Source of the DNA: Deltaproteobacteria bacterium | Lineage (GTDB): Bacteria > Myxococcota > Kuafuiibacteriia > Kuafuiibacteriales > Kuafuiibacteriaceae | Direction: 5' to 3' | Assembly (NCBI GenBank): GCA_040218735.1 | Contig: JAVJQW010000041.1 | Span: 1 to 64,000, forward strand | DNA: 64,000 nt | Part shown: in pieces, positions 44,055 to 64,000 of the stretch | Position numbering within the stretch: position 1 is the stretch's first letter | Layout: each line of letters begins with the position of its first letter | Program-made: the position numbers and the translations under genes | Notes under the pieces: generated by a model | Told to the model about the DNA's origin: nothing | The model's input: the letters and a program-made list of their open reading frames with translations, nothing else | Database searches by the model: none

Positions 44055-45134
44055 TCATCGATTCGGGACATGACAAGCGGCGAGGCGCTCGAGCGCCTCC
44101 TGATACCTCGCGATCAGCGGCGCGCCGAACGGCGCGGTGATCGAGCGACGGTCCGCGCGGAGGGGCCGAGGCTGCGTCAGCCGCGCCGCGAGCGCATCGA
44201 CGAAGCCATCACGCGCGTAGCGAAACTCGGGGCCGAACAGCTCCGCGTAGGCGAGATCGTCCGGCACGAGCGGGCACGCCCCGAAGTGCGTGGCCTCCAA
44301 CATCGCGATGCCGAAGAACTCGTGCTGCGCCGTCGACACCGCGAGGTCCGCGCGGTGCAGCAGCGACTCGTACGTCGCGCGGTCCGCGGGCCCGAAGTGG
44401 ACGAGTCGATCCGCGAACCGCTCGGCCGCTTCGTCGAACACGTCCGGCCACCGCCCGTGTCGCGGCCCCGCCACCGCGAGCGCGAAGTCGACGCCTCGCG
44501 CCGCGACCGCCTCCAGCCCGGCGAAGAACGTCCACGGATCCTTGTCGTGCTCCCAGCGATGGTTCCACAGCACCAGCGGCGGCCCCGGCTCGGGGGGCGC
44601 GACCGGCGCGGACGGAAGCTCGAGCGGCACCGGCATCACCGAAGCGCGCGCTTCGATCCGCTCCACGAACCCGGGCGGCACCGCGTCCGGCATGCGCGCG
44701 AGCAGCGCGCGCCCCGCGTCGAGGAACGAACGCAGGTTGTAGGCGCTGTTGAACCAGCACTCCGTCGCCGCGAGGCACGAGACGAGCTGCGTGAACCCGA
44801 AGTGGTGGTCCCGCGGCGCGTCGGTCTGGTTCGGATACGTCAGCTGGTTTTCGTGGAAGTACAGCACCCGCGGTACCTGGGCGAGGGCGGGGCGCAACCC
44901 CACGAGCTCCGCCAGCGGCACGTAGCTGGACGCGAGCACCACGTCCGCGCCGTCGAGCTCGGGGCTCGAAGCGAAGAACGCGGCGCTCCCCCGCATCCGC
45001 CACTTCCAGTGTCGGCCGGGGAGGGTGAGCCGGCGCCAGTCGACGTCGACGCCCGAGAACAGCGCCTCGGCGAACGCCGCGTGGGACCCCGCGAAGAACG
45101 GCTCGACGAACGCGACCTGCACTCGACGGTTCAC
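44055..45134 (-). CDS. GT4 glycosyltransferase with DUF3524 domain (GTDC1/QTMAN-like)
   Basis: 'EPFFAGSH', 'LPGRHWKWRMRGSA', 'YFHENQLTYP', 'FNSAYN', 'WNHRWEHDKDP', 'STA.HEFFGIAMLEA'. Confidence 0.85.
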   Translation of the reverse strand: MNRRVQVAFVEPFFAGSHAAFAEALFSGVDVDWRRLTLPGRHWKWRMRGSAAFFASSPELDGADVVLASSYVPLAELVGLRPALAQVPRVLYFHENQLTYPNQTDAPRDHHFGFTQLVSCLAATECWFNSAYNLRSFLDAGRALLARMPDAVPPGFVERIEARASVMPVPLELPSAPVAPPEPGPPLVLWNHRWEHDKDPWTFFAGLEAVAARGVDFALAVAGPRHGRWPDVFDEAAERFADRLVHFGPADRATYESLLHRADLAVSTAQHEFFGIAMLEATHFGACPLVPDDLAYAELFGPEFRYARDGFVDALAARLTQPRPLRADRRSITAPFGAPLIARYQEALERLAACHVPNR

Positions 45135-45183
45135 GTCGCGGCCACCATGGCGCGTCGTCGATCCGTTTGCCATCATCATCGAC

Positions 45184-46542
45184 GTGCGTTGGTCCCCGCC
45201 GTTGCTGCTCGCGTTGGTGTGTTGCGCGCCGGACCCGGTGACGCTGCGGGCCGACGTCCCCTTCGAGGCGTCGGACGCCAGCGCGATCGTCGCGTTGCTC
45301 CGCCCGAACGAGGCGCCCGAGCTGCGCGCGTTCGTGATCGAGGACGGCGCGATCGAGCCGGCGTGGAACCTCCCCGTCGCGGACGCCGATCGCTGGACGG
45401 TGCAGGTGCTCGTCTACGACGTCGCGCTCGCCGAGCTCGGGCTGGAGGCGGGGGTGGTCGTGCCGGTCACGGAAGGCGCCTCGCGTGCGTTGCCGTCGCC
45501 CGCGCGCATCCTCACGCGTCAGCTCGAGAACCGCGCGCTGCTCGATCAGTGGGAGACGACCGCGCCGATCGACGCCACCGTGGCGACGCTGCGGCTCCCG
45601 CTCGTCTGCACGACGTTCGAGCCGGTCGAGGTGGACCTCCCCGACGACGTCCCCGCGATGTTCCTCGTCGCGCTCGACGACACCCGGCTGCTGATGGGCA
45701 ACCGGGATGGCGCGATGTACGTCGCGACGCCCAACGGCGCGCTCCAGGCGATCACGTCGACGGTCGGCCTCGTCTACGACGCGTTCGCCGACGACGCGGG
45801 TGACGTCTACCTCGCCGCGACGGACGGGCTCGTCGCGCACGCGCGCGTGGTTGCGGATCGCTTGGAGGTGTTGTCGACGGAGTCGGTCGGCAACGACGAC
45901 GTCCTCTACATCGACGGCGAGACCGAGGTCGGCAGCGAGGTGCGCTTCGTCCTCGACACCGAGCGCGCGCAGCGTCGCGACGCAAACGGGTGGTCGCGGA
46001 TCTTCGGGTTCGGTCGTCCGCGTGGCGTCGCGTCGATCGGTGGCGGGCTCGGGCGCGCCGTCGTCGGCTACAACCCCTTCGCCTGGACGTTCGACACGAT
46101 GGACCTCGAAGACAACGTCACCGACAGCACCATCGCCGGCGGCGTCACGACGATCGGGCGGACCCCGATGGGGATCGTCGCGGGCACGGAGTACGGCCAG
46201 CTCTACCGGCGCAACGGCGACGACGACTGGACGTTCCTCGAAGGGCTGGCCCCCGAGCTGCTGCAGATCCGCGGCATCGCGGCCTACGACGACGGCTTCG
46301 TCTACGCGCGGCCGGACGCGGTTCTGCAGGTCGTGGAGGGGCAGGCCTGCCCCTACGTCACACCCGTCTCGCAGCTGGGCGAATCGACCGCGACCGAGAT
46401 CGGGGTCCCGGTGGAGGACGCGGCGCGCGACGGCGGTCGGGCCGAGCTCACCGTCGTCGGCGACGATCTGGCGGCGCTGGTGTGGCGCGGCCCGGAAAAC
46501 GACCGAAAACCGGAGCTTTGGTGGTTTCGACCGCGCAATTGA
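45184..46542 (+). CDS. Hypothetical lipoprotein, probable beta-propeller C-terminus
   Basis: Lipoprotein-like signal (…LLLALVCC) and repeated short beta-strand motifs ('LLMGNRDGAMY', 'YLAATDGLV', 'VAGTEYGQLY'). Confidence 0.6.
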   Translation: MRWSPPLLLALVCCAPDPVTLRADVPFEASDASAIVALLRPNEAPELRAFVIEDGAIEPAWNLPVADADRWTVQVLVYDVALAELGLEAGVVVPVTEGASRALPSPARILTRQLENRALLDQWETTAPIDATVATLRLPLVCTTFEPVEVDLPDDVPAMFLVALDDTRLLMGNRDGAMYVATPNGALQAITSTVGLVYDAFADDAGDVYLAATDGLVAHARVVADRLEVLSTESVGNDDVLYIDGETEVGSEVRFVLDTERAQRRDANGWSRIFGFGRPRGVASIGGGLGRAVVGYNPFAWTFDTMDLEDNVTDSTIAGGVTTIGRTPMGIVAGTEYGQLYRRNGDDDWTFLEGLAPELLQIRGIAAYDDGFVYARPDAVLQVVEGQACPYVTPVSQLGESTATEIGVPVEDAARDGGRAELTVVGDDLAALVWRGPENDRKPELWWFRPRN

Positions 46543-46583
46543 GTCAAGAGTCGCGCAAGGCGTGAAAACCTCTAAAAGTGCTC

Positions 46584-46622
46584 GGAACGTAGGTTGACGT
46601 CGCACGTTCCCGCCTAGAAACT
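46584..46622 (+). promoter_or_regulatory. Putative promoter/operator of the giant-AAA operon
   Basis: TTGACG (46594-46599), 17 nt, then GAAACT; the -35 box is bracketed by the inverted repeat GGAACGT(46584-90)/ACGTTCC(46604-10). Confidence 0.5.
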
Positions 46623-46645
46623 GTTTCGGCTCGGACGGGACGCAG

Positions 46646-49600
46646 GTGGGGGACGGCATCGAACCGAAGCGGACCTTCCGTCCGTACGAGCGCACGCGGG
46701 TCGACGACGGATCGTCGCCCGCGATCGACGACGCCCATACCAAGAAGCGAGACGCCGACGCGCCGGGCAAGGATCTCGTCGGCGACGTCTTCCAGGCCAC
46801 GCACCAGATCGACGACGACGCGGAGCAGGCGAAGTTCCGCGCGAAGGACGCGACGACCGAGCGCGCGCGTGCGGACCACGTCGAAGCGAAGGACCGTCTG
46901 ACGGTCGGGGGCGCGACCTACAAACTCGACGCCGCCGCGAAGCGCTCGATGACGGCGCTCGAACCGAACCGCCAGGTGATCGCCGCCGTCGACGGCGCGA
47001 TCCGCGCGGGCCGACCGCTGCTGTTGTCCGCAGCTCCGGGCTCGGGGGCTGCGTACACCACCGAGTGGGCGCTGCGCGCGATGGATCGTCCGCACGAGAT
47101 CGCACGCCTCTCGAAGAACACCCCGCTCGAGGCGCTCGTCGGAGCGCTGCGCCCCGAGGACGGCAACGCGCTGCGCGTGAAGGACGGTCCGCTGACGCGC
47201 GCGATCCGCGACGGACGCGTCATGGTCATCGATAGCGTCGAACGCGCGGACCCGCAGGTCCGCGCGGCGCTCAAGGCGCTCGCCGCGGGGCTCAAACGAT
47301 TCCACCACCCGGTGAGCGGCGAGTTGATCGACGTGCACCCCGAGTTCCGGCTGGTGATGATCGGTGACCAACGCGAGCGGCGCCTCGGCAGCCAGCTCGG
47401 CGTGCGCACCGTCCGCGAGATCCGCGCCTACGACGAGGCCGAGCACCGGCGCCTGCTCGTCGATCAGGTGGGGCTCCCGGAGGAGCTCGCCGGGCGCCTC
47501 GCGCAGTTCCACGAAGACGTGATGGAGAAGGTCGACGCCTCCGACCTCGACTTCTCGCGCGGCTTCCCGCTCGGGTGGTCGATGCTGGAACGCGTCGGTC
47601 GCCGGCTCGCGTCGGCGCGCGATCCGGACGACGCAGAGATCGGCCGCGCGCTGATGGGCGTCTACGGTGCGCGCCTCACGAAGTCGCACCACCGCGACGC
47701 GTTCCAAGGCCTGCTCGAAGACCTCGACGCGTGGCCGCCCAAGCAGCGCCCCGCGCGAAACAGCGCCGACGAGAGCTTCGTCCGCACGCCGCGGATCGAT
47801 CGGATCCTCGCGCAGGCCGAGGACGCGCTCGTCGCCGGCGAGATGCTCCACCTCCGCGGCGCGGGCCAGAGCGGCATCACGACCCTCGTCGAGGAGATCG
47901 CCCAGCGGCGCGGCCAGGAGCTCGTGACGATCGTGGGCCACTCCGGCCTCGACGCGCAGACCCTCGTCGAGCGGCCGACGTTCGACGAGGCGGGCGACCT
48001 CTACTTCAAACCCGGTCGCATCACCCGCGCGCTCCTCGAAGGCGGCATCCTCTTCGTCGACCACCTCGACCAGCTCCCGCGCGAGCAGCAGAACGCGATC
48101 TTCGCGTTGCGCGACATGAAGACGATCCGCGTGCTGGAGGGGGACACGATCGTCGACAAGAAGGTCGACCCGCGCGCGCGTATCGTGATGTCGACGACCA
48201 CCGGTCACGTCCGCGGCCGCGCGACCCCCGAGGCGAGCGACCGCGCGATGGCGACGGAGATCGCGGTCGACGCGCCCGACCTCGACGAGGTCACCGGCCC
48301 CTTCATCGACCGCCTCGTCCCCGGCCGCGAGCGCCTGAAAGAGCGCCTCAGCGACGTCATCTACGACCTCGACGCGGAGGGGAGCATCCCGCGGCTGAAC
48401 CGCCTGCAGCGGATGACCGACTTCGTGCGCACGGCCGAGCTGCTCTCCGAGTCCGGCTTTACGAACAAGGGCGCGATCGCGCGCGCGCTGCGGATGGTCT
48501 TCGATCCGAAGGAGAGCGACGTCCTCACCGAGCTCGATAGCGCGAAGCCGATGGACGACGACGTCGAGGGTCCGCTGTGGCAGCGCGTGCTCGGGTTGTC
48601 CGACAAAGACGTCGCGTCGAGCCTCGACAAGACCGGCTACCGCATCACGAACAGCATGCACGCGCACCTCGATGCGCTCGCGATCGCCCACCGCCTCGGG
48701 CGACCGGTGCGATCGATCGGCCCGGCGAGCTCGGGCAAGACGGTGCTCGGCTCGGTGTTCGGCGCGCTGATCGACAAGTCGGTGGTGCGCACCAACTTCT
48801 CGCAGTCGACGGAGGGGCAGAGCCTGCTGTCCGCGATGGCGCCGGTGAGCGAGGGCGAGCGCACCATCTTCAAGGAGTCGCTCGGGCCCGCGCGCACCGC
48901 GGCGCAGACGAAGTCGCTGCTGATGGCCGACGAGTGGAACCTCTCGCGGCAGGGCCAGATGGCGCTCAAGTCCGCGCTCGACAAACGCGGGCGCCTCATC
49001 GACCCGGAGGCGGACATCGAGGAGAGCTTCGCGGAGTCGTTCTTCTACGCCGCGCAGAACGAAAACGATCCGGCGCTGGGCCGCTACGAGCCGCCGCCCG
49101 AGGTCGCGGACTGCATGTTCACGATCTTCGTCGACCCGCGCCCGGTCGACGAGAAGATCGAGGTCGTCAAATCGCAGTGTGATCTGAAGGGCGAGCACAT
49201 CGAGCCCATCGCGAACGTGTTCGCGGATCTCGAAGTGCTCGTGGAGCGCGGCAAGCTGTCGTCGCAGGTCGCGCCGATCACCGCGACCGAGCGCGACATC
49301 CTCAAGGCCGCGCGCATGGCGCACTACCTCATCGAGCGCGATCGTGTGCGTGGGCCGGACGAGCAGCGCCAGCTCGTGGGCCGCGAGGTGTTTCGGGTGA
49401 TTCGCGATCAGCTCGCGAGCCCCGAGGAGCGCGAGATGGTGCTCGACCTCGTGCGCAAACGCTTCGGCGACGACATCGAAGCTCCGCCGCGTCCGAACGG
49501 CGTCGAGAAGGTCACGGTCGAGGTCGACGGCGAGTCGGTCGAGATGGTGCAGATCGGCTCGGCGCGGTTCCCGGTGCGCGTGCTCCCCGAGGAGCTGCAG

Positions 49601-52600
49601 AAGGACGTCCCGAAGCTCGACGGCATCCGCGATCCGGTCGGCATCCAGTTCGAGTTCCTGGAGTCGGTGCTGCTCGGCGCCGAGCTGAAGGAGCCCGTGG
49701 CGGTGGTCGGCAACACCGGCACCGGCAAGACGATGCTGATGAAGTGGCTCGCGCACCACCTCAACCAGCCGGTGATCGAGCAGCCCTTCAACGCAGACAT
49801 GACCGAGGAGCACCTGTTCGGTGCGCAGGTCATCGGGCGGGGCGGGAAGATCACGTTCAAGTACGGCGACATCCCGACGGCCATCAAGAACGGCTACTGG
49901 TACATCGGCGACGAGCCGACGACGCTCGGTCACAGCGTCCGCGAAGCGCTCAACCCGGTCACCGAGCGCTCCGAGATCCAGATTGCGCAGAAGCGTCCGC
50001 CCGAGACGATCCCCGCCAAGGACTGGGACCCGCAGTTCAGGTACTTCGAGACCGCGAACGGCGACGACATCCGGCAGGACGGCTACTCCGCGCCCGAGGC
50101 GAGCCGGCGGCGCATGGTGGTGCTGCCGGAGCTCGACACGATCGAGGACTACGAGGCGGTCGCGCGGCGCGACTACCAGTCCGAGGGCTTCGAGCCGATC
50201 GAAGGGCTGAAGCGCACCGACGAAAACCGCGCCGCCGTGCGGGACGCCATTCTCGAGCTCGTCGGACCCTCCGCCTTCAACGAGGCGTTGGTTCGTGCCT
50301 TCGAAGGTGAAGAGGTCGAACCCGTCCAGCACGTGCCTTCGATCGAGCTGACGGACGCGGACGCGAAGACGATCGTCGAAGCGCTCTCGATCTACACCTA
50401 CAAGAAGAAGGACGCGTCGGTTCGCGAGCTGCTCACGGATTTGCTCGCGGCGTCCACGGGCCAGGCGGCGTTTCGGGCCGCGCCCAGCATCGACCCCGAG
50501 GTCCTCTCACCGCGCGCGAAAGAGGCGCTGGGGGGCGCGGCGGTGGTCGAGGGGCGCCTCGTCAACCCGGACGAGGTGATGGCCGCGACGGAGCTGTTCT
50601 TCTCGCTGCGTGAGCTGCAGCGCGACGCGCCGGACGCGAGCCTCACGCCGCTCACGCCGCGCATCTACGGGACGTTCATGGACGCCCTCGTGCAGCTGCG
50701 GACGCGGCGCTCCTTCGGTGCGGCGTTGATGCGCGCGTCCGAGATGTTCCTGGCGCCGAAGCTGCCGGCGAGCGTGCGCAAGGATCTCACCGCGCACGTG
50801 GAAGACCGCGCGCACGTCGGTGATGAGACGCCGGCGTCGGTGCCGGAGCAGCTCGCGACGAAGGTGCGGTTCGGCGAGGTTTACGTCGAGCGCGGGTCGG
50901 AGCGGCCCTGGAAGCCGTCGAACGAGCGCTTCCCGCTCACCGAGCCGCGCTGCCGCAACCTGCAGGCGATCGGCGAGGCGGTCGAGCTCGGGCGCGGGCG
51001 TCCGATCAGCATCACCGACGACGAAAACGGCGAGGCGGTCGAGACGCTCCGCGAGTTCGGGCGCATCACGGGCCGTCGTGTCACGGAGGTGACGCTGCCG
51101 CCGAACGTCGAGCTCGAGCAGCTGCTGGAACGGCTCGTCGTCAGCGCGACTTCGAAGAGCGGCTTCGAGCCGGAGCTTCAGCAGATCGCGCAGGCGATCA
51201 AGGACGGCCACACCCTCGTGCTGCGCGGGTGCGGGCAGGTCAGCACCAACCGGCTGGAGCGTTTGAACTCCCTCGGCGACGGACGCAACGCGGTGCACTG
51301 CCCGGTGTCGGGGGAGTGGCTCGAAGCGCACCCGCAGTTCCGGCTCGTGATGATGCGGACGCCGGACTCCGTCGAGAAGTACTCGGCGGCGCTGGAGAAC
51401 CGGCTCGTGACGCCGCCGCTCACGACGCAGCACGTCCCGACCACCGAGGCCGCGCGTGAGTCCCGCGCTGCGGAGCTCGCGGCGGTGCTGCGCGAGCGCT
51501 GCGAGATGTCGCGCGACACCGCGGACAAACTCGGCGTGTTCCACGTCTACCTGAACCACATGCTGCGCGAGGGGCGCTTCGCCTCGGGCCGCGCGGTGGG
51601 GACGTTCCTCAACCACGACGCCGAGTCGGTCGGTCGGCGCCTCGCCTGGCTGGTCGAGCGCAACGAGGTCGACGACGAAGACGAGGCGCTGGTCGAGCTC
51701 GTGATGTCGATCTACGGCGAGCGCCTCGCGACGCCCACGGATCGCGACAAGCTCCTGGCGCTGGTGCAGAAGGCGTTCTCGACGGAGAGCACGGGCGTCG
51801 ACATCGACGCGACGGTGTCCCCCGGCCCGAACATGAACCGCGTCGGTCCGTGGGCGCTCACGCGTGACCCGCGCGGGCGCGCCGACGATCTCCCGAAGGC
51901 CGAGGCCGTGCTCCCCGAGGGCGAGGTGTTCGACCAGGTGCTGCAGAAGGTCTCGGCCGCGGCGCAGTTCGACGAGGTCATTCACCTGACCGGCAACGAC
52001 TTCATCGCGGACGCCGCCGTCGCGTCGCTCGCGCGGCTGACGACGTCGCCGGTGGTGGAGGTCGAAGGCAACCGCGACATGACCGAAGCCCACCTCTTCG
52101 GCGGGACGGTGCAGGACCAGCAGACGGGCGACTTCGTCGAGACCGAAGGGTTGATCTTCCAAGCGCAGCGCGAGGGCGGGACGGTCGTCGTGAAGAACGC
52201 GTCGACGCTCCCGCCGGAGGTGCTCACGCGACTCACGCAGATCGCCGCGACCGGTCACCTGCAGCGCGTGAAGAACGGCGTGCTCGAGGAGCCGGCACGG
52301 ACGTTCTCGCTGGTGCTTCGGACCAGCGAAGGCGACCCGCCGCTCGCGCGTGAGCTGATGAGCCTCGCGCGCACGGTGCGTTGCCCCGAGATCGAAGACG
52401 GCTCCGAGCTCGTCGCGACTGCGGCGCACCACCTCCGCGCGGTGGCGGGCGGAGCGCAGATCGCCGAGGAGCTGGTGAGCTTCCACCTGATGGCGGCGAA
52501 GGCGCTCGAGAGCGAGTCGCTGGTCGGGCGGCAGCAGATGCGCATCGACAGCGCGCGCCTCGTCGAGGCGACGCGTGATCTCGCCGAGCTCGTCGCAAAC

Positions 52601-55600
52601 GGCGAGCCGCTCGAGCGCGCGGTGACCGACGTCGTCACGCGGCTGTACCTGCACCCGCTGGAGGGGATGGATCTCTCCGAGACGCTCGAGGATGCGTTCT
52701 CGCGGTTGGTCGAGGCGCTCGACGGTTGGCTCGAGATTCAGCGCGTGCCGCCGATCGATCTCGTCGCGAACCCCGAGGTCGATGCGCTGCGCCAGGACTA
52801 CGAGCGGGTGTCGAACGACCTCGCCGGTGAGCTGTTCGCGTCGGCCGGTGACGCGCTCGGCGTCGCGCTCGACAAACGTGACGCCGCCCAGGTGCGCGTC
52901 GTCTTGGCGGCGTTGGAGTCGTCGTCGATGCTGCCGCCCGCGCTCGCGAAGCGCGCCGCGAAGCTCGCGAAGAGTCTGACCGGCGACCGCCTGGAGGAGA
53001 CGGCGGCGCGGTCCATCACGACGTTCTCGAAAAAGCTCACGAAGTCCTACTCGGCGGAGGGGGACTTCAAGGAGGCCGCGCACGGTTTCCTCCGCGGCGC
53101 GCGGGTCTGGGACCTGGAGTACCGGCTGCAGATCGTCGGGCGGTACCACGACCTGTTCGGCACACTCGCGAAGGCCGGGAGCGGGATCGCGCAGACGCGG
53201 CTCGAAGAGCTGGAGCGCCTCGCGGAGCGGTTCGACGGTGCGCAGGCGCAGACTCGGCTGGAGGCGTCGCGGCGCGCGGTGGACGCGGCGACGGTGCGCT
53301 ACGAGCAGCAGGGCGGCGCGAACGACCCGCAGATCGACGCGATCTTCAAGCGGCTGGTGTCGACGTGGGACCTCGTGTCGACCAGCCCGATCTTCCGCGC
53401 GCACGCGCTCCCCGAGCTGAAGGATCTCGAGAAACACCTGGTGTCGTTGGAGGCGGCCTACGACGCACGCGGCACGCCGACGCCGGAGTTCGTGCAGCTC
53501 TCGGAGGCGATGCGCGAGGCATCGCGTGCGCTGGAGGGGATGCGCATCGCGGAGCAGTCCGCGGATCTGCGTCGCGGTCTGGCGCGTTCGAACCAGAGCA
53601 CCGAGCAGATCGTTCGTTCGCTGCGCTCCGAGGTCGAGACGATCCGCACGCTCGACTCCGCGAAGTCGCGCAACGAGGTGCTCACGCAGGTGGAGCGTCG
53701 GATCGCGACGGCGACCGGCGACGGCGGGTTCCTGCGGCTGGATCCCAGCGGTGCGACGGTGACGCGCCCCGAGGGGCGGAGTGACACGGAGATCGGCGTG
53801 GAGGCCGCGCAGCTCGCGGAGGCGGAGGTGCGCTTGCACATCGCCGAACAGACCGAGCGCATCATGGGCGAAGTGCAGAACCTCGCGTCGGCGCCGCCCG
53901 CGTCGCCGGCCAAGGTGTTCGCGAACTACGACCTCGAGATGGCGCCCGACGCGCCGACGGTGAAGGCGACCCCGGCCGAGCAGCACTACGAGACGCAGAT
54001 GGCGGCGCTCACGAAGAGCGCCGCGGCGATGCGGACCACACGAACGAAGGCCCACGCGGAGGCGCTGCGTGCGAAGGACGACGAACGCATCGAGCGCATG
54101 TTCGACGCGCGCCTCAAGCAGAGCGTGCAGGAGGTCGGCGCGCAGATTCAGGGCTCGGCCACCGAGCTGATCCAGACGATCGGCTCGGTGTCCGGTGCGC
54201 TGGAGGTCGACCCGGAGCTCGCGGCCGACGTCCACGCTGCGGTGCAGCTCCTCGAGGTGGCGCGCGACAGCGCGGGGGGCTGGATGCGGCGCTCCGCCGA
54301 GGCGGCGTACGCGGTCGGTCGCGGCATCCTCCGCGTCGGTGTGAAGATCATGACGTTCGGGTTCGGCGACCTCCCGCCCGAACAGGTGGAGCCGGCGCCG
54401 GAGCTCGCCGAGGCGAAGCGCGCGGCGCAGCGGGTGTTGGAGCGTCTGCACGCGATCGCGGTGGCCGAGCGCCAGGAGCTGCCGGACTTCAACGAGCTCG
54501 AGGTCCACGAGGCCAACACCGACGTCCTCACGCAGCAGCTCGTCTCCGCGCAGACGCTCGGTGAGCTCGCGGCGAAGTTCTCGAAGATCGACACGCTCCG
54601 GCAGGGCGAGGACGACGCGGGCGTCGCGCGACACCTCGCGGCGGTCGCCGGTTCGATCACGCGCGAGCGCGGGATGGAGGAGACGCTCCGGCAGGTCTCC
54701 GCGTTCGTGGCGGGCGCCGACGCGCTGTCGGCGGCGGCGGCCGAGGGCGGGGTCCCGGTCGAGATGGCGCGTGCGGTGGACGCGGTGATGTCGGCGGCGG
54801 AGTCGGTGCGCACGCAGTCGCTCGCGGCGGGGGCGTACAAGAACACCGTTCGTGCGCTGGCGCGCGCGGTGGAGCGCATCGACGAGATGGCGGAGGAGGG
54901 CTCGGTGCCCGAGATCCTCGTGAACGTGCGCGAGGAGATCGTCGCGCTCGAGGAGCGCATCCAGGCGATGTTCGTCGGGCGGCAGGATCTGCTGACGATC
55001 GAAGCCGGCAACTACCGCGAGATGCTCCGGAGCCTCGGCGAGGCGACCGGCGAAGAGTCGAGTGCGCACGTCGTCGAGGCGGCGGTGTCGCGCAACCTCG
55101 CGCGGTTCGACGCCAAGGCGAAGGTCGCCGAGGAGGACGTCGACCGGTTGACGGAGTGCATCGGTGGGATCGGCGAACGTCGCGACAGCGAGGCGTCGGC
55201 GAATCGACCCAGCCGGGCTGCGCGGCTCGCGACGATCAACGTGTCGTTCGATCGCGCTTCCGAGATCACGTTCCCCGAGATCCCGGCGGAGGACGACGAG
55301 AGCGCAGAGGAGGCGGCGGCGAAGAGCGAGGCCCACGCGCTGCGCGGTGAGATCTACGACGTCACGAAGCGACTCGAGGACGACGTCGCCGAGCGCAGCG
55401 GGGGCCTCGAAGGCGAGACGGCGGCGGCGCTCGAAGCGCTCGATGCGCTGGAGGCGTCGCGCGGCGTGCGCGCGATGAACGACGCGCTGGGGCGGCTCGA
55501 CGAGGTCCGCGCCGCGATCGACACCATCGCGACCAAGGAGATGGACAGGCGAACCACCGCTCGTGAGGTCGGCCTCGTGCGGAACGCGCTGGGAAGGCTG

Positions 55601-58600
55601 TCCTCGACGCTCCGTGGGCTGGAGTCGGCGCCGGACGAGGCGATTGCGAAGGTCGATGCGGTCATCGAGGGCGTACGTCCGTTGGCCGCGGCGCTCCGCG
55701 AGGATCGCTTCCAACATCTCGCGCGCGACTGGGCCGCGCAGGCGCGCGTCGCGCTGACGGACACCCGCGGCACGATCGTGGAGACGATCGAGGCGCTCCC
55801 CGAAGAGAAGAGGTCCGGCAACGTGGTCGTCGCGCTCGAGTCCGTCGTCGATCGCCTCACGCCGCCGATCGGTCGTCTCGGTGCGTGGTCGCGGTCCCAG
55901 CTGCTGTGGCACGCGAAGCAGCGCATCGAAGCCACGCTCGGACACGACGACGCCGAGGATCCGAAGCTCGCCGCGTTGCTCGAGAAGATCGACGCCGGCG
56001 TCGCGACGCACGCAGCGGTCGCCGACGGGCCGGAGTACGAGGAGGCGGCGGCCGACGTCCTCGGCGCGACGCTCGACATCGGCGCCGCGATGATCGCCGC
56101 GAAGAAGCCGAACCGCGAGCAGCTCGCGACGTACGAGACGTTGGTCGGACAGGTGGATCGAATCCTCGCGGCCGAGGTGCCGGAGAACGATCGCGAGAAC
56201 ATCACCGACGCGATCCAGACGGTGCAGGCGCTCACGAAGGGCAAGGGCCCGGTCGCGGAGGCGGCGCGTGAGCTGAGCGTCGCGCTCGGACACGTCCGCC
56301 AGGCCGAGAACCACCGCACGATCGTCGCGGAGAAGCAGGCCCTGCGGGCGTCGGCGGAGTCCTACCTCGAGACCGTGCGTGACGCGCGGGTGCTCCTCGA
56401 CGAGGCCGCGAAGGCGTTCCTCGACTACGACCCGCTCGAGTCCGAGCAGCCGCTGAAGGTGACCGCGCGTGCGCTGCGCGACGCGGTGACCACCGCCTCC
56501 GAGGCGATGAACGGCCCGGCCGCCGTGGTGATCGCGCGTGCGTTCCTGGACCTGCAAGTTCGCTTGCAAGGCCTCGGCGACGGACCGATCAGCGCGGAGG
56601 CGGGACAGATCGTCGAGGAGCTCGACCCGGTGGTGCGCAACGCGCGTGCGATGGCCGAGGCGAAGGATGCGCCCGAGCTGTTCACGAAGATGGTCGCGCA
56701 CTTCGACGACAAGACCTCGGCGAAGAAGAAGCGCACCGACGAGCTCGCGAAGTGGGCGCAGGGCGCCAGCGAGGCGCTGCGGGCGTTGATGGCGGTCGAG
56801 GACGCCGAGATGCCGGCGCTGCTCGCGTCGACGCTCGACGATTGGTTCGAGGCGCTGAAGCCGAAGACGTCATCGGCCCCGGCGGCGCCGACCGTGCAGG
56901 CGGAAGCCAAGCCGGTGAAGCCGGTGAAGTCCGCGCTCGCCGGGCTGGTCGACACGGACCGGCGGAGCGTCGGGGCGGCGCTGGGCGCGCTCGCGGCCGA
57001 GTCGCGGTCGGCGCCGAACGCGCCGGACGGCGAGCGGACCGAGGGGGTGGCCCAGGAGGTCGAGAATCGCGACGCGCCGCGCGCCGAGAAGGGCTCGGAC
57101 CTCGGTGAGATCCACCGCGACGAGCTCTCGGGCGGCGCCGTCACGGAGCGCTCCGACAAGATCGAGATCGTCTCGATGGACCGCGAGGGCCTCGACTCGA
57201 TCCGCGAGCGCATGCAGAGCGCGGCGATCGACGAGGTCCACGAGAACGACGGCGAGGTGCTGCTGTCCGAGTTCGAGTCCTTCATCGAGGAGAACGCGGA
57301 GCTCGTCGACAAGATGGCGGCGACGCTGCGCGAGTATCCGGGCCTGGAGACGGTGATCGTGGTCGACCAGTCCGGGTCGACGTCGAAGCAGTCCAACGGC
57401 ACCTCCATCATCGACCAGGAGCGCGCCGCCGCAGCGCTGGTGATGGCGGCGCACATGCGCGCGGAGCGGAACTGCGCGGTCGTCGGTTTCGGCAACGGCA
57501 TCAGCTCCGAGAAGCCGGTGTCGGCCGTGGGGGGCGGCCGGTGGGGCGTGGACGTCTTCGTCCACAAACCCATGGCGCTCAAGCTCGACGCGGAGGCGGC
57601 GAACTTCGCGTACGGCGTGACCGGAAACTGCGGCGGCGGCACGGACTTCATCGAGCCGATCAACGTCGGGATGGGGCAGTTCACCTCCAAGGCGAACAAC
57701 AAACTCGTCTTGCTGCTCACCGACGCGCAGCTGCACGAGACCGCCGACGTGCGCCGCAAGATCGACACTGTGCGCGACGGCGGCGTCGGCGTGGCGGTGC
57801 TGGGCTTCGGCGCGGCGCGCCACGTGAGTCAGCTCGCCGGGGAGTTCGGTGAGCACGTCTCCAGCTACGAGCAGGCGATCGAGCGCGCGCATGAGCTCTT
57901 CCTCCGCGCGGTCGTCGACAACGCGGGGCGCTTCAAGGGGGATGTCGACGGTGCGGCCGACGGCATCGGCACGCCGCAGGGGCAGCACCCGATGGAGGCG
58001 GCGTCTTCGGACGGGCCGATGGACACCGCGCTCGACCTCGCGCACCCGGTCGACATCGCCGGAGACCCGGGCGAGGTCTACGCTGCGCGCGGCCCTCGGC
58101 GCGAGCTGATCAACACCGTGGATCGCGGCGTCTACGAGCGCGCGCTCAAGGCGTTGGACCTGAAGCACCGCTCCGTGACGAAGACGCCGAGCTTCAAGCG
58201 CTGTCGGCAGGAGGTCGCGGCGCTGCGTCGGCGTCACGAGCGCGAAGGAACGATCGAAGCGCTCGCCGGCGCGATTCAGCCGGGGCTCCCGAAGACCCGC
58301 GGCGTGGAGTGGGAGCGCAAGCAGCTCTCCGGGCCGAGCTTCGACGAGCGGCAGCTCGTGATCTGGGCGGCCGGTCGCGCGCAGGGTGTGCCGGTGCAGC
58401 GGATCTTCAAACGTCGCAAGGGCGCCGACGAGGCGAAGGCGACCGTAGTGCTCGCGATGGACGAGTCGTCCTCGATGGGCGACAGCGAGAAGATGCGCGC
58501 GAACCTCGAAGCGATGATCGCGTACGGCGATGCGCTGAAGGCGATCGACCCCGAGATCAAGATCGCGGTGGTCGGGTACGGCGATCGTGTCCGGTTGCAC

Positions 58601-58969
58601 GCCGGGTTCGAACACGCCTGGGACGACGAGCTGAAGGCACACCTGCTCCACCAGATCCGCGGTGAGTACGACGCGACCGACGACGAGCGCGGCGCGGCGG
58701 AGAGCATCGGCCTCCTCAAGATGATGGAGGCCGAGGTCGGGATGGTGATGAACTTCTCCGACGGCCAGGGCATGCCGGGCGCCGAGGACGTGATGCGCTC
58801 GGCGAAGGACGACGGGTTCAGCTTCCTCACGGTCGGGGTCGGACCGGACTGCGTGGGTGTCAGCCGCCTCGGCCCGTACGGCCTGTACGCGCGCAACCTC
58901 GCGCAGATGATCCAGAAGATGGCGCCGAGCATGGCGAAGAGCTGGGAGCTCGCCGGGAGGCTGGCGTGA
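46646..58969 (+). CDS. Giant midasin/Rea1-like protein: six tandem MoxR/dynein-related AAA+ modules, helical linker, two VWA(MIDAS) domains
   Basis: 4107 aa. Intact Walker A/B 'GPASSGKT'/'LMADEWN' (aa ~692) and 'GNTGTGKT'/'YIGDEP' (aa ~1022); four degenerate modules, each with an 'HPxFRLV'-type strand; MIDAS 'DQSGS' (aa 3574) and 'DESSS' (aa 3939). Confidence 0.85.
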   Translation: MGDGIEPKRTFRPYERTRVDDGSSPAIDDAHTKKRDADAPGKDLVGDVFQATHQIDDDAEQAKFRAKDATTERARADHVEAKDRLTVGGATYKLDAAAKRSMTALEPNRQVIAAVDGAIRAGRPLLLSAAPGSGAAYTTEWALRAMDRPHEIARLSKNTPLEALVGALRPEDGNALRVKDGPLTRAIRDGRVMVIDSVERADPQVRAALKALAAGLKRFHHPVSGELIDVHPEFRLVMIGDQRERRLGSQLGVRTVREIRAYDEAEHRRLLVDQVGLPEELAGRLAQFHEDVMEKVDASDLDFSRGFPLGWSMLERVGRRLASARDPDDAEIGRALMGVYGARLTKSHHRDAFQGLLEDLDAWPPKQRPARNSADESFVRTPRIDRILAQAEDALVAGEMLHLRGAGQSGITTLVEEIAQRRGQELVTIVGHSGLDAQTLVERPTFDEAGDLYFKPGRITRALLEGGILFVDHLDQLPREQQNAIFALRDMKTIRVLEGDTIVDKKVDPRARIVMSTTTGHVRGRATPEASDRAMATEIAVDAPDLDEVTGPFIDRLVPGRERLKERLSDVIYDLDAEGSIPRLNRLQRMTDFVRTAELLSESGFTNKGAIARALRMVFDPKESDVLTELDSAKPMDDDVEGPLWQRVLGLSDKDVASSLDKTGYRITNSMHAHLDALAIAHRLGRPVRSIGPASSGKTVLGSVFGALIDKSVVRTNFSQSTEGQSLLSAMAPVSEGERTIFKESLGPARTAAQTKSLLMADEWNLSRQGQMALKSALDKRGRLIDPEADIEESFAESFFYAAQNENDPALGRYEPPPEVADCMFTIFVDPRPVDEKIEVVKSQCDLKGEHIEPIANVFADLEVLVERGKLSSQVAPITATERDILKAARMAHYLIERDRVRGPDEQRQLVGREVFRVIRDQLASPEEREMVLDLVRKRFGDDIEAPPRPNGVEKVTVEVDGESVEMVQIGSARFPVRVLPEELQKDVPKLDGIRDPVGIQFEFLESVLLGAELKEPVAVVGNTGTGKTMLMKWLAHHLNQPVIEQPFNADMTEEHLFGAQVIGRGGKITFKYGDIPTAIKNGYWYIGDEPTTLGHSVREALNPVTERSEIQIAQKRPPETIPAKDWDPQFRYFETANGDDIRQDGYSAPEASRRRMVVLPELDTIEDYEAVARRDYQSEGFEPIEGLKRTDENRAAVRDAILELVGPSAFNEALVRAFEGEEVEPVQHVPSIELTDADAKTIVEALSIYTYKKKDASVRELLTDLLAASTGQAAFRAAPSIDPEVLSPRAKEALGGAAVVEGRLVNPDEVMAATELFFSLRELQRDAPDASLTPLTPRIYGTFMDALVQLRTRRSFGAALMRASEMFLAPKLPASVRKDLTAHVEDRAHVGDETPASVPEQLATKVRFGEVYVERGSERPWKPSNERFPLTEPRCRNLQAIGEAVELGRGRPISITDDENGEAVETLREFGRITGRRVTEVTLPPNVELEQLLERLVVSATSKSGFEPELQQIAQAIKDGHTLVLRGCGQVSTNRLERLNSLGDGRNAVHCPVSGEWLEAHPQFRLVMMRTPDSVEKYSAALENRLVTPPLTTQHVPTTEAARESRAAELAAVLRERCEMSRDTADKLGVFHVYLNHMLREGRFASGRAVGTFLNHDAESVGRRLAWLVERNEVDDEDEALVELVMSIYGERLATPTDRDKLLALVQKAFSTESTGVDIDATVSPGPNMNRVGPWALTRDPRGRADDLPKAEAVLPEGEVFDQVLQKVSAAAQFDEVIHLTGNDFIADAAVASLARLTTSPVVEVEGNRDMTEAHLFGGTVQDQQTGDFVETEGLIFQAQREGGTVVVKNASTLPPEVLTRLTQIAATGHLQRVKNGVLEEPARTFSLVLRTSEGDPPLARELMSLARTVRCPEIEDGSELVATAAHHLRAVAGGAQIAEELVSFHLMAAKALESESLVGRQQMRIDSARLVEATRDLAELVANGEPLERAVTDVVTRLYLHPLEGMDLSETLEDAFSRLVEALDGWLEIQRVPPIDLVANPEVDALRQDYERVSNDLAGELFASAGDALGVALDKRDAAQVRVVLAALESSSMLPPALAKRAAKLAKSLTGDRLEETAARSITTFSKKLTKSYSAEGDFKEAAHGFLRGARVWDLEYRLQIVGRYHDLFGTLAKAGSGIAQTRLEELERLAERFDGAQAQTRLEASRRAVDAATVRYEQQGGANDPQIDAIFKRLVSTWDLVSTSPIFRAHALPELKDLEKHLVSLEAAYDARGTPTPEFVQLSEAMREASRALEGMRIAEQSADLRRGLARSNQSTEQIVRSLRSEVETIRTLDSAKSRNEVLTQVERRIATATGDGGFLRLDPSGATVTRPEGRSDTEIGVEAAQLAEAEVRLHIAEQTERIMGEVQNLASAPPASPAKVFANYDLEMAPDAPTVKATPAEQHYETQMAALTKSAAAMRTTRTKAHAEALRAKDDERIERMFDARLKQSVQEVGAQIQGSATELIQTIGSVSGALEVDPELAADVHAAVQLLEVARDSAGGWMRRSAEAAYAVGRGILRVGVKIMTFGFGDLPPEQVEPAPELAEAKRAAQRVLERLHAIAVAERQELPDFNELEVHEANTDVLTQQLVSAQTLGELAAKFSKIDTLRQGEDDAGVARHLAAVAGSITRERGMEETLRQVSAFVAGADALSAAAAEGGVPVEMARAVDAVMSAAESVRTQSLAAGAYKNTVRALARAVERIDEMAEEGSVPEILVNVREEIVALEERIQAMFVGRQDLLTIEAGNYREMLRSLGEATGEESSAHVVEAAVSRNLARFDAKAKVAEEDVDRLTECIGGIGERRDSEASANRPSRAARLATINVSFDRASEITFPEIPAEDDESAEEAAAKSEAHALRGEIYDVTKRLEDDVAERSGGLEGETAAALEALDALEASRGVRAMNDALGRLDEVRAAIDTIATKEMDRRTTAREVGLVRNALGRLSSTLRGLESAPDEAIAKVDAVIEGVRPLAAALREDRFQHLARDWAAQARVALTDTRGTIVETIEALPEEKRSGNVVVALESVVDRLTPPIGRLGAWSRSQLLWHAKQRIEATLGHDDAEDPKLAALLEKIDAGVATHAAVADGPEYEEAAADVLGATLDIGAAMIAAKKPNREQLATYETLVGQVDRILAAEVPENDRENITDAIQTVQALTKGKGPVAEAARELSVALGHVRQAENHRTIVAEKQALRASAESYLETVRDARVLLDEAAKAFLDYDPLESEQPLKVTARALRDAVTTASEAMNGPAAVVIARAFLDLQVRLQGLGDGPISAEAGQIVEELDPVVRNARAMAEAKDAPELFTKMVAHFDDKTSAKKKRTDELAKWAQGASEALRALMAVEDAEMPALLASTLDDWFEALKPKTSSAPAAPTVQAEAKPVKPVKSALAGLVDTDRRSVGAALGALAAESRSAPNAPDGERTEGVAQEVENRDAPRAEKGSDLGEIHRDELSGGAVTERSDKIEIVSMDREGLDSIRERMQSAAIDEVHENDGEVLLSEFESFIEENAELVDKMAATLREYPGLETVIVVDQSGSTSKQSNGTSIIDQERAAAALVMAAHMRAERNCAVVGFGNGISSEKPVSAVGGGRWGVDVFVHKPMALKLDAEAANFAYGVTGNCGGGTDFIEPINVGMGQFTSKANNKLVLLLTDAQLHETADVRRKIDTVRDGGVGVAVLGFGAARHVSQLAGEFGEHVSSYEQAIERAHELFLRAVVDNAGRFKGDVDGAADGIGTPQGQHPMEAASSDGPMDTALDLAHPVDIAGDPGEVYAARGPRRELINTVDRGVYERALKALDLKHRSVTKTPSFKRCRQEVAALRRRHEREGTIEALAGAIQPGLPKTRGVEWERKQLSGPSFDERQLVIWAAGRAQGVPVQRIFKRRKGADEAKATVVLAMDESSSMGDSEKMRANLEAMIAYGDALKAIDPEIKIAVVGYGDRVRLHAGFEHAWDDELKAHLLHQIRGEYDATDDERGAAESIGLLKMMEAEVGMVMNFSDGQGMPGAEDVMRSAKDDGFSFLTVGVGPDCVGVSRLGPYGLYARNLAQMIQKMAPSMAKSWELAGRLA

Positions 58970-59415
58970 CGCTGAGGTTCTTCAACGGGCTGCAGATCGA
59001 CGTCCCGAAGGGGTGGACCGATCTGTCGACGGTGATCATCGCGCCGAAGAAGGACGTCGCGCAGGGCGACCGGCCTTCGATCAACCTCGTGGTGAAGCGG
59101 CGCCCCGCCAAGAAGAAAGAGGACGCCGACACGCTGAAGTCCTACCTGTCGTTCATGCGGCAGAGCTTCGGCGAGCTGCACGACCTCGAGACCAAGGACC
59201 TGCTCGTGGGGAACACACGCGCGAAGGCGGTGCGCTTCAAGGCGTACGCCGACGGGCGCTGTTTCACGCAGACCACGATGCTCTACACATCGGCGGGGGA
59301 CGAGATCTCCGCGACGGTGACCCAACTCGACGAGGATCCGACGACCGCGAAAGAGGTCGAGAAGCTCCTCAAGTCCATTCGCCCCGCGGCGGGTGGTGTG
59401 TTCGGAATCAAGTGA
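58966..59415 (+). CDS. DcrB/DUF1795 (PsbP/Mog1-fold)-like protein
   Basis: 149 aa; 'IDVPKGWTDLS', 'PSINLVV', terminal helix 'EVEKLLKSIR'; GTG overlaps the giant gene's TGA. Confidence 0.6.
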   Translation: MTLRFFNGLQIDVPKGWTDLSTVIIAPKKDVAQGDRPSINLVVKRRPAKKKEDADTLKSYLSFMRQSFGELHDLETKDLLVGNTRAKAVRFKAYADGRCFTQTTMLYTSAGDEISATVTQLDEDPTTAKEVEKLLKSIRPAAGGVFGIK

Positions 59416-59428
59416 AGGAAGCGACGAG

Positions 59429-63653: not shown

Positions 63654-64000
63654 TGTTGGCGTATCCGACCGAGCTCAAGACCCGCATCGTGCAGCTGCTC
63701 GAAGACGTCGGGCCGCTCGCGCTCGTGAGCGGGATCGGCTTCGACGCCGATGACGAGGGGCTGCTCGCCGACAACCTGCGTGCCGTGCGCGAGGGCGGGT
63801 GGCGCTTCGTCGAGCTACCCGCCGAGCCGGACGGTGCGCGCCTCGCGCTGGTGGGTGCGTGGCGCGAGGAGGCCGTGGTGGTGCTCGTCCCCGACGCGCT
63901 GCCGCGCCCGCTCATCGAGCTGGTGCGTGCGTTCATCGACAAACGCGACGAGGTCGATCTCGGTGACTTCGAAAAACGTCGTCGCCGCGCCGACCAGAGC
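63653..64000 (+). CDS. Hypothetical protein, truncated by the window edge
   Basis: ATG overlaps the preceding TGA (TGATG); frame open to the end: MLAYPTELKTRIVQLLEDVGPLALVSGIGF…. Confidence 0.65.
   Translation, partial: MLAYPTELKTRIVQLLEDVGPLALVSGIGFDADDEGLLADNLRAVREGGWRFVELPAEPDGARLALVGAWREEAVVVLVPDALPRPLIELVRAFIDKRDEVDLGDFEKRRRRADQS

Follow-up and report, generated by a model that had tools for sequence, protein, structure and literature searches.

Is the body plan of midasin (Mdn1/Rea1), in which six AAA+ modules, a very long linker, and a VWA domain are joined in a single chain, confined to eukaryotes? In the portions of the literature that we consulted, AAA+ chains with six modules in one are ascribed to dynein and midasin and are placed in early eukaryotes as to their origin. 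The question is raised by a 64,000-nucleotide stretch (hereafter the window) of contig JAVJQW010000041.1, from the Deltaproteobacteria bacterium assembly GCA_040218735.1 (Myxococcota), which carries an open reading frame (ORF) of 4,107 codons whose product we call the giant. We assign a probability of roughly 0.6 to the reading that the giant is a cytoplasmic, single-chain MoxR-VWA remodeling machine with a midasin-like layout, which probably arose by triplication of a two-module (A-B) unit and is not a midasin ortholog.

Domain composition and integrity of the giant

The giant and its parts, with six AAA modules numbered M1 to M6 and hhalign probabilities given against midasin modules AAA1 to AAA6 (A1 to A6), are as follows.

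46646..58969 (+), giant ORF, 4107 aa: GTG start, TGA stop, single open frame
46916..47737 (+), M1, aa 91-364: degenerate AAA_5 (45.6 and 48.3 bits in two scans) with PGSGAAYT for Walker A and IDSVE for Walker B; 98.4% to A1
47738..48598 (+), M2, aa 365-651: degenerate AAA_5 with GAGQSGIT and VDHLD at the same sites; 99.0% to A1
48599..49588 (+), M3, aa 652-981: intact Walker A GPASSGKT (nt 48719) and Walker B ADEWN, midasin-type lid AAA_lid_7 at aa 839-941; 99.8% to A5
49589..50887 (+), M4, aa 982-1414: intact Walker A GNTGTGKT (nt 49709) and Walker B GDEP, motif EASR.R, AAA_5 match across model positions 2-139 of 139, long C-terminal extension after the module
50888..51868 (+), M5, aa 1415-1741: no P-loop and no Walker B, motif ALENRL kept, AAA_lid_7 at 18.3 bits (sub-cut-off); 99.0% to A3 and 99.2-99.3% to M1
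51869..52870 (+), M6, aa 1742-2075: degenerate AAA_5; 95.5% to A1 and 97.2% to M2
52871..57280 (+), family-specific linker, aa 2076-3545 (~1470 aa): no family match
57281..58015 (+), VWA domain 1, aa 3546-3790: MIDAS motifs DQSGS (3574), GGGTD, and LLTDAQ; VWA_2 and VWA matches
58421..58966 (+), VWA domain 2, aa 3926-4107: MIDAS motifs DESSS (3939), DATDDE, and FSDGQG

A preliminary description, made from the letters of this stretch, had recognized six AAA repeats in one chain, and profile comparisons bear this out. On the whole giant, the Pfam model AAA_5 matches six stretches (E = 1.8e-54), and AAA_lid_7 (“Midasin AAA lid”) matches two. The modules were also scanned as pieces of ~350-450 aa, of which M1 (45.6 bits), M2 (37.9 bits), M4 (58.1 bits), and M6 (28.2 bits) passed the AAA_5 cut-off of 22 bits. 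M5 scored 19.5 bits, under this cut-off, and the Pfam scan of the M3 piece gave no AAA_5 match at E ≤ 0.1 and returned AAA_lid_7 only. For profile-profile comparison using hhalign, the module profiles were built from 15 orthologs for M1 to M6 and from 40 midasins for A1 to A6. Each of the six giant modules matches at least one midasin AAA module at a probability of at least 95%; the best midasin probability reaches 99.8% for M3 and 99.0% for M5 and is weakest for M6 (95.5%). These sequence matches confirm that the giant holds six AAA_5 modules, the type found in MoxR, CbbQ, and midasin.

The P-loop positions of M1 to M6 lie at nt 47036, 47858, 48719, 49709, 51011, and 51986, with successive spacings of 274/287/330/434/325. 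The preliminary description had placed all six Walker A regions correctly, but only those of M3 and M4 look functional. These two modules alone keep both Walker A and Walker B, and they do so in 10/10 orthologs. In M1, M2, M5, and M6, the Walker A Lys and the Walker B DE are absent from all ten orthologs, and conserved noncanonical sequences occupy the Walker sites in the same ten. Conservation is as high in the degenerate modules as in the active ones (column conservation index 0.56-0.75). MoxR-type proteins carry an Arg finger at the C-terminal end of the AAA_5 model, and it is at this end that EASR.R of M4 and ALENRL of M5 are conserved (10/10 orthologs each). From this placement we infer two complete, composite ATP sites: EASR.R would provide the Arg finger for the Walker A/B motifs of M3, and ALENRL would do so for those of M4. 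The single-module proteins nearest to M4 are AAA_5 proteins bearing CbbQ_C (33% identity, E = 5e-10).

Between the AAA part and the VWA domains lies the long Ala/Glu/Arg-rich stretch noted in the preliminary description. Its computed composition at aa 2076-3400 is 17.5% Ala, 10.5% Glu, 9.5% Leu, 8.8% Arg, and 3.2% Pro, and acidity and the content of Ser and Pro rise over its last ~145 residues (aa 3401-3545). The linker is conserved, but less so than the ends of the giant, and it shows internal similarity between aa 2861-3200 and aa 3201-3545 (89% probability). It has no match in Pfam and none in the PDB, even when searched with a six-sequence profile. The two VWA/MIDAS domains are likewise as first described. 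Pfam VWA_2 and VWA each match two stretches of the whole giant, both domains carry the full DxSxS...T...D set in 10/10 orthologs, and hhalign relates them to the midasin MIDAS domain at 95.2% (domain 1) and 96.3% (domain 2), the latter domain being the best-conserved part of the giant. A crude Kyte-Doolittle scan of the giant revealed no hydrophobic segment or signal-like N-terminus, and the protein, of ~450 kDa, is probably soluble and cytoplasmic.

The giant is a real, conserved, and intact gene. It occupies the single open frame originally reported, its start site is common to its orthologs, and it is single-copy in its source genome (11.6 Mb, 96.5% complete). Its bacterial character was also judged correctly, as its GC content of ~70% matches that of its flanks and its orthologs come from metagenome-assembled genomes (MAGs) of Myxococcota. 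A search restricted to long proteins returned seven bacterial relatives with 98% to 48% identity, mostly of 4100-4220 aa. Their source names are merely “AAA family ATPase” or “MoxR-like ATPase,” and they come from MAGs labeled Myxococcota or “Deltaproteobacteria”; eukaryotic midasins rank after them in this search, at E = 1e-23 and weaker.

The preliminary description had proposed that other Myxococcota be examined for the same architecture, and among 401 genomes sampled from the phylum, we found it in nine. These nine include the window's own genome and belong to three families; with that genome excluded, the carriers number 4/19 in family f1, 3/4 in f19, and 1/11 in f17. The search applied a stricter first look, and the counts are thus a floor. 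Open frames in the other genomes span 4140-4331 aa where the contig permits, and ten aligned orthologs of 4102-4220 aa share 34-75% identity with the giant. Furthermore, when the C-terminal region was used for a pattern scan across 185,579 species genomes, seven loci were confirmed, all in MAGs, with Myxococcota, Myxococcales, or delta-proteobacterial labels and one Bdellovibrionales label.

One alternative, that separate MoxR and VWA genes were joined by misassembly (a danger that the preliminary description itself had raised) or in a decaying pseudogene, is effectively refuted. It is true that every record is a MAG and that in genome G112 the closest genus-level ortholog (61% identity) occupies two overlapping frames, of 2417 and 1908 codons (L024:6698-13906 and L024:13780-19260). 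The partner genes downstream of this split are intact, and a frameshift, an error in sequencing, or a genuine division of the gene could account for the split. Against an artifact stand the same long open frame in at least eight other genomes, in one case on a 6.9-Mb contig, and conservation along the entire length of the giant. In addition, sequencing runs from several studies, with aquaculture, biofloc, and sponge samples among their habitats, carry DNA near-identical to the giant locus. A 22,781-nt contig from another study's sponge metagenome spans the gene, covering positions 46000-60000 with 162 substitutions and three indels. One of the indels is an intergenic +1 just 5' of the start codon, and the others are a compensating -1/+1 pair 3 nt apart, giving zero net frameshift. 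Therefore, the ortholog frames and this independent contig together exclude misassembly.

Two sponge-metagenome runs carry a near-identical strain with one base fewer at 57535 and one extra after 57538. The frame is kept, and the indel pair adjoins the MIDAS-bearing strand of VWA domain 1. Short “joints” in the metagenome comparison were dismissed as chance matches to other organisms, as their sides measure only 20-31 letters. No RNA run is among the runs listed with near-identical DNA, which has no bearing on expression.

Resemblance to midasin and the apparent A-B module pairs

Chains of midasin, the eukaryotic AAA+ ATPase that remodels pre-60S particles in ribosome assembly, are the top solved-structure matches of the giant (E ~9e-24, phmmer against the PDB), and the two proteins are alike in layout. 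Both are single chains of ~4100-4900 aa with six tandem AAA_5 modules, AAA_lid_7-type lids, a very long non-AAA linker, and a C-terminal VWA domain with a complete MIDAS. These likenesses could indicate that the giant is a true midasin homolog as a whole six-module chain, either through a prokaryotic hexa-AAA-MIDAS ancestor or through transfer of a eukaryotic midasin gene to a myxobacterium and subsequent divergence. An exhaustive HMMER search with aa 90-1200 among 1.8 billion proteins yielded 1364 proteins at E ≤ 1e-3. Among the best 150 of these 1364, about a dozen family members are followed almost exclusively by midasin-sized proteins of 4000-5500 aa with five to nine matched stretches. 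However, summed scores favor any multi-module protein, and therefore this ranking is no proof of special kinship.

Other comparisons separate the giant from midasin. The phmmer alignment with Rea1 is not colinear, since query residues 675-890 align with Rea1 1683-1900 and query residues 1015-1161 with Rea1 1029-1171. Six P-loops of the form G-x4-GK[ST], regularly spaced (~330/430/290/383/310), are present in 63 of 78 midasin-sized matches, whereas the giant has two of this form (M3 and M4). The giant has two VWA domains where midasin has one, and its host is a bacterium with no nucleus or pre-60S pathway. Its linker, compared in four pieces with a 24-sequence midasin tail profile, reaches an hhalign probability of ≤0.5% and is not detectably related. 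The ~70% GC shared with its flanks gives no sign of a recent transfer.

The modules of the two proteins do not correspond one to one. The 6x6 hhalign matrix lacks a diagonal, as M3 scores best with A5 and M5 with A3, and M2 and M6 have no preference. The matrix does reveal an alternation common to both proteins, in which A1, A3, and A5 give the highest scores for M1, M3, and M5, and M4 prefers A4 and A2. Odd and even midasin modules form two similarity classes by hhalign, and within the giant the mean score is ~94 when odd modules are compared with odd, ~78 when even are compared with even, and ~57 between odd and even. AAA_lid_7 follows M3 and M5, although the M5 lid is weak. On this sequence evidence, the giant looks like three A-B pairs (M1M2, M3M4, and M5M6).

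A maximum-likelihood tree was computed for 103 modules; with the exception of M2, each M or A class forms a well-supported clade in it, and the classes are unpaired. The M2 class also takes in P0155, a 316-aa protein that we had considered as a single-module protein of midasin-like strength and rejected: it is a fragment of a family member, encoded on a 1027-nt contig, and groups inside M2. A second module tree, with CbbQ-type single-module proteins added, gives the same picture with weak deep support. Topology tests were conducted on 90 rows, with the single-module proteins and one long-branch ortholog removed. Forcing all bacterial modules into one clade gave the best likelihood found, with a log-likelihood (lnL) 13.6 above that of the free search (p = 0.744 in the approximately unbiased [AU] test). 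Forcing together the odd modules of the bacteria, of midasin, and of an archaeal protein described below costs 6.8 lnL and is not rejected (p-AU = 0.399).

These sequences leave no doubt about homology within the AAA_5 clade. The trees do not separate a shared from an independent origin of the six-module chain; the latter has the better likelihood, and we lean toward it, so that homology of the whole chain with midasin is somewhat disfavored. The shared lids, the shared alternation, and the survival of the odd/even split in the AU test argue for such homology. We nevertheless regard it as quite unlikely, given the missing diagonal, the bacterial-only clade, the unrelated linker, the second VWA domain, and the loss of four of six P-loops. 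The preliminary description had called the giant midasin-like and “related or convergent.” Its first claim holds for the layout and fails for the linker and for a module-by-module match with AAA1 to AAA6, and its second now tilts toward independent fusion. The best reading of the sequences is that the giant resembles midasin in layout and is not a midasin ortholog or family member.

How might such a chain have been assembled in bacteria? The source genome also encodes, on contig 6 (G000), a smaller AAA_5 protein followed by a VWA gene.

L058:4890-10091 (-), two-module AAA_5 protein, 1733 aa: ends AAA_5-AAA_lid_7-AAA_5-AAA_lid_5
L058:1706-4483 (-), 925-aa protein with a C-terminal VWA domain, encoded by the gene after that of the 1733-aa protein

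Like a pair in the giant, the 1733-aa protein has an A-type module with AAA_lid_7 and then a B-type module, and it has a VWA partner. The top-scoring counterparts of its first module are M3 and M1 in the giant and A3 and A5 in midasin; those of its second module are M4 in the giant and A4 and A2 in midasin. It differs from the giant in having only two modules, both with intact P-loops, in having its VWA domain on a separate gene, and in carrying a ~1100-aa N-terminal region, whereas the giant has a C-terminal linker. Against midasin modules, its modules outscore those of the giant (185-253 versus a maximum of 194), which is a further point against homology of the giant with midasin as a whole chain. 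It is plausible that this two-module form represents the building block, three copies of which would make a six-module ring. Together with the module classes, it points to a route of triplication and fusion, possibly taken more than once. Most likely, as far as sequence comparison can tell, a two-module MoxR unit of the A-B kind was fused and triplicated in bacteria to give the giant.

A second prokaryotic six-module chain was found in P0024, a protein of 4005 aa named “AAA family ATPase [Thermoproteota archaeon]” in its source. As in the giant, six AAA_5 stretches, midasin-type lids (AAA_lid_7 and AAA_lid_5), and a C-terminal VWA domain lie in a single chain, and its odd and even modules form two clades in the 103-module tree. 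It differs from the giant in that all six P-loops are intact, a gap of ~900 residues separates modules 4 and 5, and its single VWA domain is not preceded by a long linker. With 29% identity across the matched stretches (E = 2.8e-38), it is not an ortholog of the giant. As side observations, P0027 (7557 aa) and P0036 (6708 aa) have several P-loops and a C-terminal DxSxS, and partial multi-AAA_5 proteins (P0081 and P0137/P0169) come from MAGs labeled Omnitrophota and Roseovarius.

We found no description of a prokaryotic midasin-like or six-module MoxR protein in the full-text literature, although an earlier mention is possible, as supplements (e.g., that of Kaur et al. 2020) lay outside the search. 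A conserved bacterial protein with the midasin body plan means that this plan is not confined to eukaryotes, and the archaeal six-module protein and the two-module form in the giant's own genome agree with this. With these proteins, candidate intermediates become available in a series from one module to an A-B pair to (A-B)x3, and the origin of giant AAA+ mechanoenzymes thereby becomes testable by structure-guided phylogeny.

Operon partners and a proposed mode of action

The giant is followed by co-directional genes, some of which lie partly or wholly beyond the window.

58966..59415 (+), DcrB/DUF1795-like protein, 149 aa: start overlaps the TGA of the giant (GTGA)
59429..62119 (+), divergent two-ring Hsp100 ATPase (ClpB/ClpV-like), 896 aa: AAA_2, AAA_lid_9, and ClpB_D2-small matches
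62121..63653 (+), Kelch-like partner, 510 aa: C-terminal half weakly Kelch-like
63650..64000 (+), continuing to ~64087 beyond the window, small conserved protein, ~145 aa: start overlaps the Kelch-like stop
64067-70655 (L026:2067-8655), four further co-directional genes of 975, 249, 631, and 348 aa: same order in G112 and G068

After the GTGA overlap, the successive junctions are 13 nt, 1 nt, and overlapping, in keeping with the translationally coupled operon that had been described. PF08786 matches 4/4 orthologs of the DcrB-like protein (best E = 5.3e-7), and the window copy scores 21.1 bits versus a cut-off of 27.2; its profile has no match in the PDB. This gene adjoins the partner genes in G112, G068, G083, G073, and G132. 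The Clp-like ATPase, also present in G112, G068, and G073, scores 389 bits with TssH and 386 bits with ClpB, both far below the cut-offs. The small protein, which has no Pfam or NCBIfam match, follows the Kelch-like gene in G112, G068, G083, G071, G030, and G132. No Pfam or NCBIfam family covers the four further genes, whose order is kept in three genera; a coiled-coil-like, SMC-type match was obtained for the 975-aa protein and a sub-threshold radical-SAM match for the 348-aa protein. NCBIfam has no equivalog for any operon protein. The crude hydropathy scan detected no membrane segment or signal-like start in the proteins from the DcrB-like through the 631-aa gene, and one marginal window in the 348-aa protein (1.66 versus a threshold of 1.6).

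Across the 401 genomes, the presence of the Kelch-like gene coincides exactly with that of the giant: all nine carriers have it, and it was found in none of the remaining 392. The nine carriers are kin from three families, and this pattern therefore amounts to about three independent observations rather than nine. A sequence search with the Kelch-like protein found four homologs only. In five of six other genomes examined, the gene lies directly after the giant or after the DcrB/Clp genes, and its junctions overlap or measure 1 nt, so that it is usually translationally coupled. In the N-terminal ~230 aa of the protein, no match to a ubiquitin-like (UBL) domain or to anything else in the PDB was detected; it is via UBL domains in Ytm1 and Rsa4 that midasin engages pre-60S particles. 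The Kelch-like and small proteins would be the first candidates for a client or adaptor of the giant.

Two possible extensions of the system were rejected. The upstream 505-aa ORF (45025..46542) has no Pfam match and no counterpart beside the orthologs. Membership in a type VI secretion system (T6SS), which the ClpV-like and DUF1795-like genes might suggest, found no support, as no other T6SS family occurs among the ORFs scanned around the locus.

Among stand-alone proteins, the nearest relatives of the giant are of the CbbQ/NorQ type, which work in MoxR-VWA pairs. Its PDB matches include CbbQ (3.9e-6) and NorQ (1.2e-5), and its best NCBIfam match is GvpN (72.5 bits). Like CbbQ-CbbO, NorQ-NorD, and GvpN, the giant belongs to the AAA_5 subfamily in which an AAA ring is partnered with a MIDAS-bearing VWA protein. 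Those proteins are, however, homo-hexamer subunits of ~270-380 aa, with six equivalent ATP sites per hexamer, that work with a separate VWA protein, whereas the giant fuses six diverged modules (four of them dead), a 1470-aa spacer, and two VWA domains. No gene for a target enzyme of the Rubisco, nitric oxide reductase, or gas vesicle type lies near the giant. In CbbQO, NorQD, and midasin, the MIDAS site holds an acidic residue of the client while the ATP cycle of the ring remodels it. The consulted part of one report (PMC13036017) describes NorQD as a twisting remodeler for metal insertion.

By analogy with these systems, we propose that the giant may unite a whole MoxR-type AAA+ ring and its VWA co-chaperone in one chain, with the six modules predicted to close into the ring. 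M1, M2, M5, and M6 would serve as conserved, catalytically dead scaffolds around the two putative composite sites, and the ~1470-aa linker would connect the ring with the two VWA domains, in which the MIDAS metal sites are intact. The MIDAS domains might then grip an acidic residue of the client, while ATP turnover at M3 and M4 would shift the position of ring and linker with respect to the two MIDAS heads, such that the client is remodeled or extracted. The Kelch-like and small proteins may act as this client or as an adaptor, and the DcrB-like protein and the Clp-like unfoldase may be accessory components in some lineages.

A different reading is that the six modules form no ring, the dead modules being scaffold or interaction domains, and that the giant is a static VWA/MIDAS adaptor or part of a higher-order assembly. 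The absence of Walker A/B from four of six modules in all orthologs and the strong divergence of M6 and M5 would fit this. On the other hand, the degenerate modules are conserved to the same degree as the active ones, and the two active sites and their putative Arg fingers are contiguous (M3-M4-M5), as expected of working interfaces. To our knowledge, moreover, the proteins of solved structure that have six AAA+ modules in tandem (dynein, midasin, and RNF213) all form rings, dead modules included. We therefore consider the ring-free alternative very unlikely.

The giant might instead be the core of a MoxR-vWA “ternary system” for biological conflict or programmed death, in which it would control the assembly or release of a downstream effector with the help of a second AAA+ protein (Clp-like) and a beta-propeller component. 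The consulted portion of Kaur et al. 2020 (PMC7159879) reports that MoxR-vWA systems are enriched in myxobacteria and other multicellular prokaryotes, and that some carry a second AAA+ protein (FtsH), beta-propellers, system-specific alpha-helical proteins, and a radical-SAM gene. The operon of the giant offers a similar set, with its Clp-like AAA+ protein, its Kelch-like protein, and four conserved family-less genes, one of them with the sub-threshold radical-SAM match, and the distribution of the giant is patchy (9/401 genomes). However, the ternary systems in the same portion of PMC7159879 have a single-module MoxR and a separate vWA protein with effector domains, and the propeller is fused to that vWA protein, whereas it is encoded by a separate gene beside the giant.

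Scans of the giant and the operon proteins with Pfam, PADLOC, and NCBIfam gave no bpMoxR (PF20030), VMAP, iSTAND, or FtsH match and no recognizable effector domain. In PADLOC, the giant has only two sub-threshold P-loop matches (E ≥ 1e-3), the Clp-like protein matches generic AAA only, and the DcrB-like, Kelch-like, and small proteins and the upstream ORF give nothing above noise. The family is also conserved and syntenic across three families rather than hypervariable. On balance, a role in conflict or programmed death is unlikely, and a remodeling machine remains the reading that we prefer.

In addition to the sub-cut-off M5 score, the missing AAA_5 match of the M3 piece, and the split G112 frame reported above, several observations weigh against the remodeling machine. 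Four dead modules and only two adjacent active sites are a departure from midasin. The deep nodes are weakly supported in both module trees, and the odd/even grouping was named only after the hhalign matrix had been seen. The scores behind the Kelch assignment are weak (Kelch_4 at 21.4 bits versus a cut-off of 21.6; profile match to KLHDC2 at E = 9e-5). In G073, the sixth of the genomes examined for gene order, the Kelch-like gene lies with the DcrB-like and Clp-like genes on a contig other than that of the giant. Finally, the partner alignments contain no invariant Glu and one invariant Asp only.

The known midasin ligands, Ytm1 and Rsa4, are beta-propeller proteins, and the obligate companion of the giant is beta-propeller-like on weak evidence. 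Both ligands are named in the consulted part of PMC6624252. A broader and more doubtful proposal is that single-chain rings of A-B-paired AAA_5 modules are of prokaryotic origin and were antecedents of midasin and dynein, and that, in addition, the MIDAS of the giant pulls a beta-propeller partner as Rea1 does Ytm1 and Rsa4. The notion of prokaryotic antecedents is prompted by the giant, the archaeal P0024, and the stand-alone two-module protein. If it were true, the body plan of midasin, and ultimately that of dynein, would not be a eukaryote-specific concatenation of MoxR modules.

The giant also presents a natural minimal case, with two putatively live ATP sites, four dead modules, two MIDAS heads, and a partner that is obligate by co-occurrence. 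It could offer a simpler system in which to follow how a linker relays ring motion to a client bound at the MIDAS. Since the carriers are without exception uncultured MAGs, such work would need heterologous expression.

Other features of the window

A second giant ORF of 2218 aa (30822-37478, +) begins with N-terminal HEAT repeats (HEAT_2, E = 4e-34), which are followed by a very long, Gly/Ala-rich hydrophobic region resembling many membrane segments. Downstream of it, an IS200-like (Y1_Tnp) transposase ORF of 228 aa lies at 38534-39220 (+). Ahead of the transposase, at ~37.5-38.3 kb, spurious minus-strand frames read a proline/arginine-rich repeat run. Four more matches to the AAA_5 model, all on the minus strand (11609-11968, 19843-20157, 23154-23498, and 26594-26941), fall in frames of 525-1313 codons. 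The gene at 44055-45179 (-) encodes a glycosyltransferase whose N-terminal domain is that of tRNA-queuosine alpha-mannosyltransferase (QTMAN_N, E = 2.6e-56); this family is known chiefly from eukaryotes.

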